A stretch of 15,712 nt of DNA from a virus (Duplodnaviria; Heunggongvirae; Uroviricota; Caudoviricetes), in the IMG/VR virus record IMGVR_UViG_2700989173_000009; one strand, 5' to 3'. The stretch's first letter is position 1. The number at the start of each line of letters is the position of its first letter. Under the pieces are notes generated by a model, which was not told the DNA's origin, made no database searches, and worked only from the letters and a program-made list of their open reading frames with translations. Shown one piece after another: positions 1 to 14,251 of this stretch. The position numbers were made by a program, and so were the translations under genes.

Positions 1-1230
1 ATGAGCAGAGCACTTAACAAACTGAGCGATACACAGCTGAGGAAAATCAACGGCACACCCGCCCAAAAAACAGCCTTTCTTAATGACGGTGGAAACCTGA
101 GCGTCAGGCATTCAACCAGTGGCCTTTTAACCTGGTATTTCACTTACAGGGCCGGAACGGGAAGGGGGGCACCACCGGAACGCATTAAGCTGGGAAATTA
201 TCCTGATCTGAGCCTGAAATCAGCCAGGGAAAAAGCCGCCCAGTGTCGCGCATGGCTGGCAGAGGGGAAAAATCCACGTCATGAGCTTAATTACACCGTA
301 CAGGAAGCGTTAAAGCCGGTAACGGTTGGCGATGCGCTCACCTACTGGCTTGAGTCGTACGCAAAGGAAAACCGCGTGGATTATGCCGCCCTGAAAAAGC
401 GCCTTAATAATCACGTAATACAGCACATTGGTGCTATGCCGCTGGATAAATGCGAGCTACGGCACTGGCTGGCCTGTTTTGACCAGGTGGCAAAGCGAAC
501 GCCTGTTACTGCCGGATTCTTGCTACAGACGTGCAAACAGGCGCTTAAGTTCTGCCGGAGGCGGCGCTATGCAATCAGCAACGTTCTTGATGATATGAGT
601 GTGGCGGACGTTGGGAAAAAACCGGATATAAGCGAGCGTGTCTTAAGCACCAAAGAACTGGGCGAATTATTGCAGGCACTGGACAAAAAAATATTCTCCC
701 CCTACTACATCGCGTTAATCCGCCTCCTGATTGTGTTCGGATGCCGGACGGTAGAACTGAGGTTATCGGAGATCAGCGAGTGGGATTTTACCGAAATGCT
801 CTGGACCGTGCCGAAAGAACACAGCAAAACGAAGGTGGCAATATTCCGGCCCATACCGGAAGCAATACTGCCGTTCGTCACGCAGCTGGTGGAGCAGAAC
901 AGGCACACGGGCTTATTGCTGGGGGAAGTGAAACAGGAAACAAGCGTGTCGCAGTACGGCAGATTAGCGCACAGGAGGCTAAATCACCCTCACTGGTCAC
1001 TACATGACATCCGGCGCACCTTTACAACGATGCTGAACGATTTAGGCGTGGATCCTCACGTCGTGGAGCAGCTTACAGGCCACCAGATGCCAGGAATGCA
1101 GCGAGTTTATAATCATTCCCGTTATCTGGATGCTAAACGCAATGCGCTGGATATGTGGACGGAGCGGTTAGGGATACTGGCGGGAACACATGAAAACGTA
1201 ACCACGCTACCAGTAGCCAGAAGAAAATAA
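1..1230 (+). CDS. int: Phage-type tyrosine recombinase / integrase (P4-like family), 409 aa
   Basis: Uninterrupted ORF starting at base 1 of the window. C-terminal catalytic signature readable in the translation: ...WSLHDIRRTFTTML... (HxxR box) and ...GHQMPGMQRVYNHSRYLD... (conserved His and terminal Tyr nucleophile region). N-terminal region (LSDTQLRK...NDGGNLSVRHSTSG...WYFTYR) matches the usual P4/CP4-57-type arm-binding layout. Upstream promoter and att are outside the window. Confidence 0.9.
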   Translation: MSRALNKLSDTQLRKINGTPAQKTAFLNDGGNLSVRHSTSGLLTWYFTYRAGTGRGAPPERIKLGNYPDLSLKSAREKAAQCRAWLAEGKNPRHELNYTVQEALKPVTVGDALTYWLESYAKENRVDYAALKKRLNNHVIQHIGAMPLDKCELRHWLACFDQVAKRTPVTAGFLLQTCKQALKFCRRRRYAISNVLDDMSVADVGKKPDISERVLSTKELGELLQALDKKIFSPYYIALIRLLIVFGCRTVELRLSEISEWDFTEMLWTVPKEHSKTKVAIFRPIPEAILPFVTQLVEQNRHTGLLLGEVKQETSVSQYGRLAHRRLNHPHWSLHDIRRTFTTMLNDLGVDPHVVEQLTGHQMPGMQRVYNHSRYLDAKRNALDMWTERLGILAGTHENVTTLPVARRK

Positions 1231-1247
1231 TTTTTTTCGTGTTTTTT

Positions 1248-1263
1248 CAGTATGCGCATACTG
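1248..1263. promoter_or_regulatory. Perfect 16-bp palindrome CAGTATGCGCATACTG immediately 3' of int
   Basis: Read directly: cagtatgc|gcatactg is its own reverse complement; it is preceded by two T-runs (1231-1237, 1242-1247) and sits 18 bp after the int stop codon. Candidate dimeric protein-binding site; function unknown. Confidence 0.4.
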
Positions 1264-1270
1264 GATATGC

Positions 1271-1325
1271 GAACAGATACAACGTGCAACAATGAGCAAC
1301 AATGCGGAACAACTACGAACAAGAG
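1271..1325 (-). repeat. Array of 10-bp phased GAACAA/CAACAA repeats (TTGTTC/TTGTTG on the minus strand), 4 exact-phase units plus 1-2 degenerate units
   Basis: AACAA cores at 1288, 1298, 1308 and 1318 (exactly 10 bp apart), with degenerate copies at 1272 and 1279. Helical-repeat phasing suggests cooperative protein binding. Same motif family as 6619-6644 and 14119-14134. Confidence 0.55.
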
Positions 1326-1416
1326 GTGAAAAAGTGTACAGATTTATAAGTAGCTGATTTTTAATGTGTTACTGATTTTTTATACACTAGCGAATCACTC
1401 TTTAAATAGCGAGAAA

Positions 1417-1445
1417 AAAGGCATGAAACAATATTTTATGCCTTT
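1417..1445. terminator. Hairpin AAAGGCAT-N13-ATGCCTTT flanked by an A-run (5') and TTTGT (3'); possible bidirectional or minus-oriented terminator
   Basis: 8-bp perfect stem (1417-1424 / 1438-1445) with a 13-nt loop. On the minus strand the stem is followed by a run of 6 U; on the plus strand only by UUUGU. Weak call. Confidence 0.3.
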
Positions 1446-1604
1446 GTATTAACATGAATTTAAAGGATTTTATCCTGATTATTCCTCTTTCTGTAAACCA
1501 TACGGCCTCAACATTTGCCAACTCTGAATCATCCTGACACAATCAGACACATCCCAACGCAATAGAACACGAAATAACTCTTTAAGAAACGAAAGGGGGC
1601 AATA

Positions 1605-1793
1605 GTGTTAAGCACTGATCGGTTTATACGTGAAAAAGAATGCGAAAAGCTAACAGGCCTTAGCCGCTCATGCCGCTACCGCCTGGAAAAGGCCGGACAA
1701 TTCCCATCACGTCGTAAACTTGGCGGTCGTTCCGTTGGCTGGTCTTTATCCGAGGTTCTGGCCTGGAAGGATAGCTGCAAGGCAGTTCATTAA
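1605..1793 (+). CDS. alpA: AlpA-family (prophage CP4-57 regulatory protein-like) small DNA-binding transcriptional regulator, 62 aa, GTG start
   Basis: Translation ...EKECEKLTGLSRSCRYRLEKAGQFPSRRKLGGRSVGWSLSEVLAWK... has the AlpA/Xis-like helix-turn-helix pattern (TGLSRSxxYRL ... FPxxxKLGxRSVGWxxSEVxxW). Good Shine-Dalgarno AAGGGGG 5 nt before the GTG. Position immediately downstream of int is typical for P4-like and PICI elements. Confidence 0.8.
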   Translation: MLSTDRFIREKECEKLTGLSRSCRYRLEKAGQFPSRRKLGGRSVGWSLSEVLAWKDSCKAVH

Positions 1794-1939
1794 TCACGCT
1801 GGCGGCACGCAGCCGCCACACATCAATCATCTGAACACAGAGCTATAACCATGAAGATTGAATATACGCCAGAACGTGGGCGGGGATTCGTTCGCCCTGG
1901 TGAAACTGGAAAACCACAAAATTGGGGTTTTTCAGGCAT

Positions 1940-1967
1940 AAAAAAAGCGGCCCCGAAATGGAGCCGC
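1940..1967 (-). terminator. Rho-independent terminator oriented for leftward (minus-strand) transcription
   Basis: GC-rich hairpin GCGGCCC-gaaat-GGAGCCGC (1947-1967); on the minus strand it is followed by 7 U (complement of the A-run 1940-1946). Implies a leftward transcript arising somewhere in 1970-2470. Confidence 0.5.
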
Positions 1968-2469
1968 CTTTCTGAACAGATAACCCGCTGCGCCGTTTGT
2001 GTGTGTGATCCCAAACATAAGCACGGGGATGATAGCCGCTATCAGGCTGGTGGGCAATGCAATCAGTCTGGTTCAGTGCGTTGCCATAACTGCGAAGTTC
2101 TCTCCTTTGATGAGTATTCTTTAAGGTACTTCTCAAGGGCAAAAGAACACGGCGCGAATCGTTCTGATTCATGCTCTTTCTTTCTGCGTCGTCTTTTTCG
2201 TGCAGGTGATGTTTTTTCGGTTGATTCTTCGTTGGTCATTGTGTGCGCCTGTAAAGCAATGCGCCGTAGTACCTCACACCACGGCGCTGATAGTTTTTAT
2301 CCTTTGGGTTCTATGCCGCGTTGCTGTAATTCTTTGCGGATTATTCGCTTTATCCAGGCAGCAAGAGAATCATCGCCGTCCTGTTGTTGTGCCTTTTCCA
2401 TCTTTTCCCGTAAGTCAGGATCTAAACGGAACTGGAACGGAGGATTACCACGCCTTTCGTTTTTGTGTG

Positions 2470-13160: not shown

Positions 13161-13173
13161 TGAGGTCAGCAGC

Positions 13174-13455
13174 ATGACAGAAGCCGAAATACTGCGATTA
13201 ATCCGCCGCGTCTCTGGAATCAGCCAGCAGGCTGACGAACAGACCACGCAGCCGGACAGCGTGACAGCCGAAAATTATGCGCGTGTTGTTGCTGAGGTGA
13301 TGCGCCGTGATGGTATCCAGCTTAATGATGCGGATATGCGCGACATACGGATCCGCGTTCTGGAAATGCTGGCCTACAATCGCCGCGTTGAACTGTATCG
13401 GGAGAAGGAGAAAATCACGTACCACTGGAAGAAGCCGGAGCGGTTACGGCGGTAA
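13174..13455 (+). CDS. Hypothetical protein, 93 aa, last plus-strand gene of the element
   Basis: ATG at 13174 with GAGGT 6 nt upstream, 13 nt after the TerL stop. Acidic then basic composition; no recognisable motif. Confidence 0.5.
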   Translation: MTEAEILRLIRRVSGISQQADEQTTQPDSVTAENYARVVAEVMRRDGIQLNDADMRDIRIRVLEMLAYNRRVELYREKEKITYHWKKPERLRR

Positions 13456-13704
13456 CTCACTGAGATTAAAGCAAAGCGCAAAATTGCGCTGGCTACATCC
13501 CTCACATCTGAGGACTGTTAACCAGCAGGCCGGAATATATTCAGAAACTACGAAATTTTCGCAGTTTAATTACTCGTCAGCTTAATCGCTAACCCGCTCT
13601 GATATTTTCGGAAACCTCAATTTGAGGAAGTCGGCGAGGTAACTGTTTGATATTCCCGATAGCGCAAAGATGCGCGGTCGGGCAGAATGACCACCACCTC
13701 AATC

Positions 13705-13740
13705 GTGACGGAGAGTGACAACCAGTGACACACCGTGACA
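13705..13740 (+). repeat. Four GTGAC(A) repeats at exact 10-bp phasing (13705, 13715, 13725, 13735), followed by the palindrome ACGGTT-t-AACCGT (13746-13758)
   Basis: Read directly: cGTGACggagaGTGACAaccaGTGACAcaccGTGACAaaaag. Related GTGACAC/TTGACAC elements flank the operon promoter at 2463-2527. Confidence 0.55.
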
Positions 13741-13792
13741 AAAAGACGGTTTAACCGTTCATTAAAAATCGACGTGATTTTGTGCTTTCCGG

Positions 13793-13817
13793 ATGACGTG
13801 GCCAACGTCATTTTTTA
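13793..13817 (+). terminator. Rho-independent terminator (stem ATGACGT / ACGTCAT, loop GGCCA, then T6)
   Basis: Hairpin 13793-13811 followed by TTTTTT; plus-strand oriented, probably terminating the packaging operon or a short transcript from the GTGACA region. Confidence 0.65.
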
Positions 13818-14118
13818 GCGAAAAATTCTGATTAAGGTCACTGGCTGAACGGTCATAATGACCACGCAGACCATCGAGGCAACCATAGCGATCATCGTTA
13901 CGGTTGGAGCTTTTCCGCCATTGGTGGAAAAGGTGCACATCTGGATCATCATTACGGTGATCAAGGGTATGTAAAACCCACCAGCCTGATTAAAGGTTAA
14001 CCGGAAAAAAAATCCGGTAGCCCCGTTATGGGGATCCCCATATCGACATTAACGCCCCTCATGAATTGGTGCGCTTCCCCCTGGAAAGATTACCCGCCTG
14101 TATATTTCTTGTGTCTAT

Positions 14119-14134
14119 TTGTTCCACGTTGTTT
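14119..14134 (+). repeat. Third copy of the 10-bp phased TTGTTC motif (TTGTTC 14119-14124, TTGTTT 14129-14134), about 120 bp downstream of the phoQ stop
   Basis: tatTTGTTCcacgTTGTTTca is almost identical to 6616-6646 minus one 10-bp unit. Confidence 0.5.
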
Positions 14135-14151
14135 CATACAGTGCACCGAAC

Positions 14152-14175
14152 GGTGTAGTTAATGGTGTAGTCAAT
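14152..14175 (+). repeat. Tandem 12-bp direct repeat GGTGTAGTTAAT / GGTGTAGTCAAT
   Basis: Read directly; 11 of 12 identical, immediately adjacent, 77 bp from the phoQ stop codon. Confidence 0.5.
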
Positions 14176-14251
14176 TTGCGATTTTTGGCACTTTTTCAAT
14201 GAAAATTGTTTGATCGAATCAATGACTTGATGTAGTGGTAAAAGGACATAT

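Follow-up and report, generated by a model that had tools for sequence, protein, structure and literature searches.

Gene content and ends of the element

The window analysed here, the whole 15,712-nt stretch recorded as IMGVR_UViG_2700989173_000009, carries a compact set of integration, regulation, replication, head and packaging genes on the plus strand, followed by chromosomal phoQ on the minus strand (Table 1). A first-pass annotation had listed these genes in this order, and all are present as listed, with two amendments: the capsid gene is split by an in-frame TGA codon, and the start of terS is unreadable in an assembly gap. It had also named phoQ as the following chromosomal gene, which its Pfam domains bear out, and had described the element as free of tail and lysis genes; no such family was matched in any scanned open reading frame (ORF). 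Defence-gene families were likewise without a match in the scanned ORFs.

Table 1. Features of the element and its right-hand flank (window coordinates; identities are amino acid identities to the EDL933 counterparts)
Feature	Position	Strand	Evidence or remark
Tyrosine integrase, 409 aa, intact	1-1230	+	Pfam Arm-DNA-bind_3, Phage_integrase
AlpA-type regulator/excisionase, 62 aa, intact	1605-1793	+	Pfam Phage_AlpA, E = 5e-18
Variable gene downstream of alpA, 248 aa	1851-2597	+	67% identity
Icd-like small protein, 66 aa	2606-2806	+	NCBIfam phage_ICD_like, E = 6e-18
DUF4222 protein, 99 aa	3471-3770	+	Pfam DUF4222, E = 2e-24
P4/D5-family primase-helicase, 582 aa, intact	3767-5515	+	Pfam D5_N, DUF5906, Pox_D5
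Predicted iteron-type replication origin	5529-5757	.	9-bp CTNTCTACC units, both orientations
Extra 101-aa gene	6079-6384		Lacking in EDL933
ssb-perC remnant ORF, 53-aa fusion	6394-6555	+	First 25 ssb codons and C-terminal part of perC
Major capsid protein gene, HK97 fold, inactivated	6859-8016	+	Pfam Phage_capsid
Prohead serine protease, 190 aa, intact	8056-8628	+	Pfam Peptidase_S78, E = 7e-48; 97.9% identity
Portal protein, 403 aa, intact	8630-9841	+	Pfam Phage_portal, E = 8e-88; 97.8% identity
Head-closure (head completion) protein, 112 aa, intact	9838-10176	+	Pfam Phage_HCP, E = 2e-23; 96.4% identity
gp6-like head-tail connector, 98 aa, intact	10173-10469	+	Pfam Phage_connect_1, E = 1e-11; 96.9% identity
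HNH endonuclease of packaging machine, 146 aa, intact	10469-10909	+	Pfam HNH, E = 2e-8; 99.3% identity
Conserved 60-aa protein between HNH and terS	10893-11075	+	PHROG 3173; 100% identity
HNH-terS spacer and terS 5' end, likely cos region	11076-11188	+	50-N assembly gap at 11118-11167
TerS (P27 family) body	11189-11515	+	Pfam Terminase_4, E = 2e-23, on 11204-11515
TerL, 553 aa, intact	11499-13160	+	Pfam TerL_ATPase, TerL_nuclease; 98.7% identity
Conserved 93-aa protein, last gene of packaging operon	13174-13455	+	PHROG 1561; 93.5% identity
Right end	14152-14253	+	Arm-type repeat and attR core
phoQ, chromosomal flank outside element	14252-15712	-	Pfam PhoQ_Sensor, HAMP, HisKA, HATPase_c

The integration and regulation genes resemble those of EcCIEDL933, the prototype capsid-forming phage-inducible chromosomal island (cf-PICI) of E. 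coli O157:H7 EDL933. The integrase protein is 100% identical to its counterpart there, and AlpA, which belongs to the PHROG 'excisionase and transcriptional regulator', is 98.4% identical at the amino acid level. The 248-aa protein encoded downstream of alpA, in a position that a 2025 cf-PICI preprint names as a variable region, has no match in Pfam, PHROGs, NCBIfam or PADLOC. The Icd-like protein is 95% identical to the EDL933 protein.

The DUF4222 gene (88% amino acid identity to EDL933) immediately precedes the primase gene and overlaps its start. An identical primase protein is found on at least 1000 contigs, labelled 'bacteriophage P4 DNA primase [Shigella flexneri]', and it aligns with the EDL933 Rep protein over the first 228 residues only, at 53% identity. 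By sequence, the primase-helicase is a replication module other than the DUF927 protein of the prototype. The iteron origin proposed in the first-pass annotation is well supported, as all seven exact copies of CTNTCTACC lie within 5529-5679 against 0.21 expected by chance, a number reached in none of 200 shuffles; degenerate copies and inverted pairs extend the region to about 5757. Downstream, about 500 bp present in EDL933 and in E. coli RM6927 have been lost. In tblastn, residues 1-25 of ssb map to 6394-6468 and residues 48-87 of PerC to 6448-6570, the Pfam PerC match of the remnant ORF is confined to profile positions 50-77, and the blastn alignment with EDL933 breaks between L004:7964 and 8468.

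Within the head and packaging module, the closure protein and the gp6-like connector are the adaptor/connector pair of the cf-PICI literature, which sets tail specificity according to the 2025 preprint. TerL starts with TTG, as it does in EDL933. The protease, portal, closure, connector, HNH and TerL genes have no further stops or frameshifts. In most packaging genes, dN/dS against EDL933 is low (0.03-0.42, from small counts), suggesting that decay is recent or that the remaining genes are still somewhat constrained.

The attR core GGACATATTT is found at 14244-14253, where it overlaps the phoQ stop codon. The left end, which the first-pass annotation had proposed to look for upstream of base 1, lies about 180 bp beyond the window, with the identical 10-bp core at position 6054 of the S. 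flexneri contig L008 and the integrase start at 6235. This contig equals the window on both flanks of the assembly gap, save for two bases at the gap edge. The arm-type tandem repeat GGTGTAGTTAATGGTGTAGT at 14152-14171 also recurs in L008, as an identical 20-mer 46 bp upstream of int (position 6189). Farther upstream of int, an S. flexneri contig that equals the window through position 11117 has chromosomal roxA, pepT and potABCD in place of phage genes. The empty site between roxA and phoQ in K-12 reads GGGCATATTT. The phoQ coding sequence is unaltered by the insertion, and PhoQ is 99.2% identical (amino acids) to that of EDL933.

Damage to the capsid and terS genes

The in-frame TGA at 7684-7686 divides the capsid gene into 6859-7686 and 7687-8016. 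It replaces Trp276, leaving a product of 275 of the 385 residues. The Pfam Phage_capsid profile continues across it with the frame unchanged (positions 1-166 before the stop and 169-278 after), and codon 276 is TGG in RM6927 where the window has TGA. The capsid protein otherwise shows 98.4% amino acid identity to its EDL933 counterpart, the structure of which is available as PDB 9GYI. The stop is common to all five S. flexneri loci compared (L007-L011). A 37-mer across it matches one S. flexneri chromosome and nothing else among species representatives, and an identical copy of the 60-nt stretch containing it occurs in none of the 349 E. coli genomes that have this segment.

The second lesion lies at the start of terS. 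The ORF called as TerS (11057-11515) crosses the run of 50 N, which hides its start. At the same spot, an alignment of the window, EDL933, RM6927 and four S. flexneri loci (L007-L010) reveals an identical 98-bp deletion in all four loci, which takes away the terS ATG with its ribosome-binding region, along with most of the HNH-terS spacer. The window to the right of the gap equals the S. flexneri deletion junction with two mismatches, and the two halves of the junction are 98 bp apart in the best-matching E. coli genomes among the matches listed. Positions 11173 and 11178 in the window are probably two end-of-contig errors. The native TerS start is missing or unreadable, and the first in-frame GTG is at 11204; gene callers give a TerS of 108 aa in S. 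flexneri versus 118 aa in EDL933. The body of the protein is preserved, with residues 7-118 of EDL933 TerS matching 11177-11512 at 100% identity. The spacer is likely the cos region. The ends of a linear cf-PICI-like record, LR881103.1, map to window positions 11112/11113.

The first-pass annotation credited the element with its own capsids and packaging by its own terminase. For the window copy this is not supported, in view of the capsid nonsense codon and of a terS start that is deleted in four S. flexneri loci and unreadable here. A fully functional cf-PICI, with UGA read-through supplying capsid protein, TerS starting downstream and spread in its own small capsids with helper tails, is very unlikely. 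The remaining packaging genes show no damage, at 96-100% identity to the working prototype, the TerS body from the GTG at 11204 keeps the whole Terminase_4 domain, and the lost capsid codon specified Trp, which is also what near-cognate decoding of UGA would insert. Read-through by tRNA-Trp would thus give the wild-type residue, and the loss of capsid protein may be incomplete. However, such read-through occurs at low frequency, typically a percent or less, whereas a T=4 shell takes about 240 capsid subunits per particle. Also against function are the deletion in the four loci, by which terS is deprived of its native start and ribosome-binding region and most of the spacer on the probable cos side is gone, and the near-identity of the element, always at the same site, in all S. 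flexneri strains compared. In EcCIEDL933, packaging-gene mutants, including single capsid or terS knock-outs, lose transfer (severely reduced in the case of gene 1792) while replication is unaffected (bioRxiv 10.1101/2022.09.08.507074).

It is extremely improbable that the lesions are sequencing or assembly artefacts in an element that is really intact. The window does have a 50-N gap and the two probable errors beside it, and fragmented roxA calls in certain S. flexneri assemblies from the same project series (L009, L011) suggest error-prone reads. But the capsid TGA recurs in five S. flexneri assemblies that are independent of one another, four of which come from complete chromosomes, the 275-aa stump is encoded on at least 1000 contigs labelled S. 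flexneri under several GenBank accessions, and exactly the same 98 bp are missing from four loci.

Relationship to known satellites and phages

The first-pass annotation assigned the element to the cf-PICI family, and comparison with EcCIEDL933 confirms orthology. The EDL933 element also sits between roxA and phoQ, with the same att core GGACATATTT and arm-type repeats. Its two cores are 15,461 bp apart, in agreement with the size of 15.4 kb given for EcCIEDL933 (Alqurainy et al., bioRxiv 10.1101/2022.09.08.507074); the element described here measures 14,366 bp. Both share the order int, alpA, variable gene, icd-like, DUF4222, rep, capsid, protease, portal, closure, connector, HNH, hyp60, terS, terL and hyp93, and, with the capsid stop ignored, the packaging proteins from capsid to TerL have 96-100% identity. 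Given the shared site, the agreement of core spacing with the published size, the protein identities and the gene order, bases 1-14253 of the window plus about 180 bp upstream very probably represent an S. flexneri allele of EcCIEDL933, integrated and damaged, a decaying relic that is inherited vertically. Satellites of this type are already known (published 2022/23), and the window element is not new.

The two elements differ in several respects. In the window the capsid Trp276 is a stop, ssb and perC have collapsed into a fusion remnant, and the terS start and spacer are unreadable (deleted in the four loci). A 74-aa gene upstream of the EcCIEDL933 capsid gene is absent, the gene downstream of alpA is divergent, a D5/P4-type primase takes the place of the DUF927 protein, and the 101-aa gene is an addition. 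Of 5,426 complete E. coli genomes, RM6927 (NZ_CP074742.1) gives the best match with its cf-PICI, which has the same roxA/phoQ site and primase type, with 93% nucleotide identity over the block 3010-6082 that includes the primase gene and 96-98% over the packaging module. Its integrase gene is more divergent. Unlike in the window, its capsid gene (385 aa), ssb, perC, and terS with the upstream spacer are all intact.

Classical PICIs encode no capsid, portal or terminase themselves and divert the packaging machinery of the helper, unlike the window element, whose head and packaging module is complete, if damaged. The classical Gram-negative PICIs EcCICFT073 and EcCIED1a are reported to have the int-alpA-rep backbone in common with cf-PICIs and, like them, to be activated by a helper in an alpA-dependent way (bioRxiv 10.1101/2022.09.08.507074). 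Likeness to P4 is found in the integrase and in the P4/D5-family primase-helicase adjoining an iteron origin; profile searches detected no homologues of P4 Sid, Psu or Delta in the element. P4 uses the capsid protein of its helper, whereas the cf-PICI family encodes its own.

HK97-like cos phages use the same families for capsid, S78 protease, portal, gp6-like connector, closure, HNH, P27-family TerS and TerL, but they are about 40 kb in size, while the element is about 14-15 kb and without tail, lysis and immunity genes. Gene order had been advanced as an argument against a decayed prophage, and it holds in part. The terminal position of the terminases is a product of where the att site cuts the circle, and in the packaged-form record terS and terL come first, directly after the probable cos site, as in HK97. 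Only the capsid-protease-portal and closure-connector orders are truly reversed relative to HK97 gp3-gp4-gp5 and gp6-gp7. Head-gene homology agrees with the cf-PICI assignment, as the nearest 'phage' records are cf-PICI-like ones of 15-16.5 kb (58-65% amino acid identity). That the element is an ordinary HK97-like temperate prophage stripped of tail, lysis and immunity genes by deletion is hardly credible: its head proteins are of HK97-type Pfam families and the window copy has clearly undergone deletions, but the tail-less layout is common to EcCIEDL933 and 140 E. coli genomes covering at least 80% of the window, att repeats bound the element with chromosomal genes directly outside, capsid identity to ordinary-sized phage records (about 38-41 kb) does not exceed about 40%, and int, alpA, primase and iterons form a PICI-type module.

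Predicted life cycle and fate in Shigella flexneri

In the cf-PICI family, alpA is switched on by a helper phage, after which the element excises and replication begins at its primase/iteron origin. The T=4 capsids, of HK97 fold, and the HNH-TerS-TerL machine that packages the DNA are the element's own; only tails are taken from the phage, docked via the element's adaptor and connector proteins. The S. flexneri copy would have integrated by its tyrosine integrase into the 10-bp core at the 3' end of phoQ. Excision and replication upon induction may still be possible, since int, AlpA, the primase, the iteron origin and the att sites show no apparent damage. Capsids and self-transfer are not expected: the capsid stop, the loss of the terS start and spacer in the four loci and the loss at ssb-perC, taken with the published knock-outs, suggest that the island should not transfer. 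Its near-identity and constant site across S. flexneri strains fit vertical inheritance over active spread. Judged from its sequence, the S. flexneri copy is most likely a stranded, non-transmissible satellite, a decaying relic that would be inherited vertically and may have become fixed in a pseudogene-rich pathogen lineage.

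Source, attachment site, and ends of the island

The island comes from Shigella flexneri: a 37-mer of the capsid gene has a single match among species representatives, an S. flexneri chromosome, and the primase protein of the window is recorded under S. flexneri names in thousands of assemblies. An S. flexneri contig, L008 (GCA_013866795.1), agrees with the window base for base over 1-11117 and again after 11179. On the 5' side of the integrase gene this contig carries roxA, pepT, and potABCD, not the phage genes that the first-pass annotation had named as evidence against a satellite.

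The element is flanked by roxA and phoQ. The direct repeat proposed for its two ends is found as a 10-bp core, GGACATATTT, which lies at attL in S. flexneri, ~180 bp upstream of int and beyond the window start, and again at attR (window 14244-14253), where it overlaps the phoQ stop and leaves PhoQ unaltered. In K-12 the empty site between roxA and the phoQ stop codon reads GGGCATATTT. A 20-bp arm-type tandem repeat, GGTGTAGTTAATGGTGTAGT, is present inside both element ends. The tRNA and Rfam scans of the window found nothing. No tRNA gene forms the att site; within the 800-bp tail region of the window, the Rfam scan gave no known RNA family.

Membership in the cf-PICI family

Genes from int through a 93-aa ORF form one series on the + strand in ORF and profile scans of the window. 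The genes listed in the first-pass annotation are all there, in the order and on the strand it gave, but the capsid gene is not intact and the start of terS cannot be read.

Features of the window and identity of their products to EcCIEDL933, the prototype element of E. coli O157:H7 EDL933
Feature	Position	Strand	Basis	Identity to EcCIEDL933
Tyrosine integrase	1-1230	+	profile scan	100%
AlpA	1605-1793	+	Pfam match	98.4%
248-aa protein, function not assigned	1851-2597	+		67%
Icd-like protein	2606-2806	+		
Small ORFs without assigned function	between Icd-like and DUF4222 genes	+		
DUF4222 protein	3471-3770	+		
D5/P4-type primase-helicase	3767-5515	+	D5_N/DUF5906	
Small ORFs	between primase-helicase and capsid genes	+		
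Major capsid gene	6859-8016	+	Pfam capsid profile, split by stop	98.4% (read across stop)
S78 prohead protease	8056-8628	+		97.9%
Portal	8630-9841	+		97.8%
Head-closure protein	9838-10176	+		96.4%
gp6-like connector	10173-10469	+		96.9%
HNH	10469-10909	+		99.3%
60-aa ORF	10893-11075	+		100%
P27-family TerS	ends 11515	+		100% (residues 7-118)
TerL	11499-13160	+		98.7%
93-aa ORF	13174-13455	+		93.5%
phoQ	14252-15712	-		

Capsid-forming PICIs (cf-PICIs) are ~10-18 kb, with att direct repeats at their borders and an integrase at one end (10.1101/2025.02.11.637232). The island spans 14,366 bp from core to core, a distance taken from L008, where only the N gap region sets the window apart, and has int at bases 1-1230. 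It contains the PICI-type regulation and replication modules (alpA, the D5_N/DUF5906 primase, and iterons) and all eight packaging genes in the cf-PICI order, collinear with EcCIEDL933; neither lysis genes nor a complete tail module turned up in the ORFs scanned. The iteron origin proposed from the sequence is borne out: CTNTCTACC occurs seven times, all inside 5529-5679, against 0.21 copies expected by chance, and no shuffle attained seven. Degenerate copies in both orientations continue to ~5757. An ORF at 3232-3465, considered as a candidate for AlpA, is without an AlpA match; AlpA is encoded at 1605-1793.

EcCIEDL933, the prototype of the family at 15.4 kb (10.1101/2022.09.08.507074), lies between roxA and phoQ in EDL933 with the gene order of the window. 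Its core-to-core distance, 15,461 bp, agrees with the published size, and the window-type S. flexneri copy is ~1.1 kb shorter. The island is orthologous to this experimentally proven member: locus and att site are the same, and identity between the proteins they share is 88-100%. The family call of the first-pass annotation was right. The structure of the EcCIEDL933 capsid protein is available (PDB 9GYI), and S. flexneri is listed among the species carrying cf-PICIs in the founding paper (10.1101/2022.09.08.507074). Element type, mechanism, exact attachment site, and capsid structure are already published.

The replication protein of EcCIEDL933 is of a different type from that of the window, while the best-matching island, in E. 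coli RM6927 (NZ_CP074742.1), has the same type; the difference from EcCIEDL933 is ordinary module shuffling. The 248-aa protein encoded directly 3' of alpA, without a match in Pfam, PHROGs, NCBIfam, or PADLOC, is 67% identical to its EDL933 counterpart, whereas the flanking genes stand at 95-100%; its gene is fast-evolving or swapped. Between a 92-aa ORF and the ssb remnant lies a 101-aa gene (6079-6384, PHROG 27268) with no counterpart at the same position in EDL933 or RM6927. PADLOC found no defence-system protein among nine unassigned ORFs, and tail, lysis, and defence families had no match in any ORF scanned in the window.

A temperate HK97-like prophage, or its remnant, would be expected to carry tail, lysis, and immunity modules or what is left of them. 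Between the att sites there are no such remains, and the HK97 head order (terS-terL-portal-protease-capsid) is reversed. The first-pass annotation had rested its case against a decayed prophage on this gene order, and part of that argument stands: the reversed capsid-protease-portal order is a published hallmark of cf-PICIs (10.1101/2022.09.08.507074). The terminal position of the terminases is instead an effect of where att lies. Packaged DNA runs cos, terS, terL, att, int, rep, capsid, protease, portal, closure, connector, HNH; att cuts this circle after terL, which leaves the terminases last in the integrated form. Nor are the head genes closest to those of ordinary prophages. Among 50,697 phage records, close matches to the head module come from only four, with capsid amino acid identity of 58-65%; three of them, of 3.8-16.5 kb, are short cf-PICI-like records, and the fourth, a 106-kb Klebsiella phage record, matches only at its very end. 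In phage records of ordinary size, capsid identity does not exceed ~40%, a pattern that agrees with the finding of the cf-PICI paper (10.1101/2022.09.08.507074). A P4-like satellite does not fit either, as the sid, psu, and delta families are not matched in any scanned ORF and the island has its own capsid gene.

The right arm of the element is mostly noncoding. It holds small ORFs on the - strand at 13762-13938 and 13617-13811, for which gene callers sometimes predict a 62-64-aa product and which have no match in Pfam or PADLOC. One encodes a hydrophobic stretch (MIAMVASMVCVVIMT...), partly conserved in EDL933, and might specify a small membrane peptide or have no product. Several units resembling GGCG(C/A)GGTAACT-NNNN-TGATATT lie 3' of the last gene of the packaging operon (window 13440-13680; 15850-16260 in L004, the EDL933 locus). 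A short hairpin, e.g., GCGCAAAATTGCGC, comes after every unit, and the copy number of the units differs between S. flexneri and EDL933.

Lesions in the packaging genes

The Pfam capsid profile is split: positions 1-166 match an ORF at 6811-7686, and positions 169-278 match the ORF that follows in the same frame, 7687-8016. Window bases 7681-7689 read GTC TGA GTG, placing an in-frame TGA at 7684-7686; RM6927 has TGG there, and the remainder of the capsid gene aligns at 98%. The capsid product therefore stops at 275 of 385 residues, a truncation that, by the published description of the capsid domains, costs the protein the greater part of its A-domain together with the C-terminal strands of the P-domain (10.1101/2025.02.11.637232). 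The TGA is common to all five S. flexneri loci examined (L007-L011), and the exact 275-aa stump is found in at least 1000 contigs under S. flexneri names. The 60-nt stretch at the TGA has a counterpart in 349 complete E. coli genomes, none of which is identical to the window there; the five matches listed all differ from it at exactly one base.

A second lesion affects terS. In four S. flexneri loci (L007-L010) a clean 98-bp deletion between two CCCCGCC repeats, with the junction CAGGACAAACCCGACCCCGCCTACC, takes the terS ATG, the first terS codons, and most of the HNH-terS spacer. The junction halves are 98 bp apart in the best-matching E. coli genomes among the matches listed. The window has 50 N at 11118-11167, inside this spacer, where terS begins. 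To the right of the gap it fits the deletion junction with two mismatches at the extreme edge, and GACAA(A)CC is duplicated on both sides of the N run. The mismatches, at 11173 and 11178, set the window apart from otherwise identical S. flexneri contigs. Read as a 1:1 mask of real sequence, the N run would need a flank spacing that fits neither S. flexneri nor EDL933. A scaffold joint of nominal length between low-quality contig ends is the likelier explanation, and the junction match together with the duplication suggests that it probably covers the same 98-bp deletion.

The cos site may lie close by. LR881103.1 (L012; Escherichia phage vB_KppS-Ant, 16,548 bp) entered the databases as a phage, obtained from the lysate of an induced prophage, and has a cf-PICI layout (terS, terL, int, primase, capsid, protease, portal, closure, connector, HNH). 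It lacks a real tail module, and its annotation assigns a tape measure protein to a 765-aa gene that follows terL. The linear record starts 22 bp before terS and finishes at TTTTCAGGAC. Its ends map to window 11112/11113, in the HNH-terS spacer and eight bases left of the 98-bp deletion, which makes them a candidate cos position for the family. If these are true cos ends, the deletion would remove the terminase side of cos, a reading that is suggestive only.

Further losses lie ahead of the capsid gene. About 500 bp covering most of both ssb and perC are gone, leaving a 53-aa fusion ORF at 6394-6555. Another 363 bp, holding a 74-aa gene, are missing in the window and present in some S. flexneri strains. 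This presence/absence polymorphism maps to window 6577-6599, to 6222-6563 in locus L002, and to about 12800-13160 in L007. The stretch is bordered by a 23-bp terminator-like repeat, CAGCCGGAGCAATCCGGCTTTTT, and its 74-aa ORF also occurs in EDL933; the window has the short form. In L011 (CP182547.1), the span of window 9136-13123, which runs from the middle of the portal gene to the terL end, has given way to strongly divergent yet alignable sequence; it shows hundreds of differences as well as small indels. On both sides of the block the sequence is identical, and no genes are called within it, which could reflect recombination with another cf-PICI or poor assembly.

With the capsid TGA and a terS start that is lost in L007-L010 and N-masked in the window, the packaging genes are not those of a self-packaging island. 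The window copy is a cf-PICI by descent, not a working member. The first-pass observation was largely right, and what it missed is the damage: the element is a known one, and this copy is defective.

Function and probable decay

In this family, a helper-induced alpA has been shown experimentally to trigger excision and replication (10.1101/2022.09.08.507074). The cf-PICI then builds T=4 capsids from a protein that it encodes itself, uses its own terminase to package at a cos site, and attaches helper tails (10.1101/2022.09.08.507074; 10.1101/2025.02.11.637232). In EcCIEDL933, single packaging-gene mutants lose transfer or, for gene 1792, show it severely reduced, with replication unaffected (10.1101/2022.09.08.507074). 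Because int, AlpA, the primase, the origin, and the att sites look intact in this copy, induction, excision, and replication would remain possible. Capsid assembly would be lost, and probably TerS expression and cos recognition too, leaving the island of the window copy presumably unable to move itself.

Across the element, L007-L010 hardly differ from the window, and L007-L011 all sit at the same site. To judge from these alignments, near-identity and a shared site fit the vertical inheritance of a fixed relic. Among the window, EDL933, and RM6927, compared for relaxed selection on the S. flexneri branch, dN/dS is low throughout, with values based on few substitutions; that they are still low suggests that the damage is recent relative to the divergence, and they fit either reading of the island.

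There is a slim chance that the capsid-null island is kept for a reason. The intact int-alpA-primase-origin half might answer infecting phages: the island might excise and replicate and then interfere with the phage or benefit from it, or another cf-PICI might rescue it in trans; alternatively, low-level UGA read-through might yield occasional particles. If so, a natural satellite that is packaging-dead but inducible would be fixed in a major pathogen lineage.

The island carries a caution for the family: cf-PICI calls made from gene content, whether automated or by eye, can pick up dead copies. In S. flexneri the island is a natural capsid-null, terS-damaged allele conserved in many isolates. 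It may serve as a lineage marker and as a natural control for the role of the replication and regulation half without packaging.
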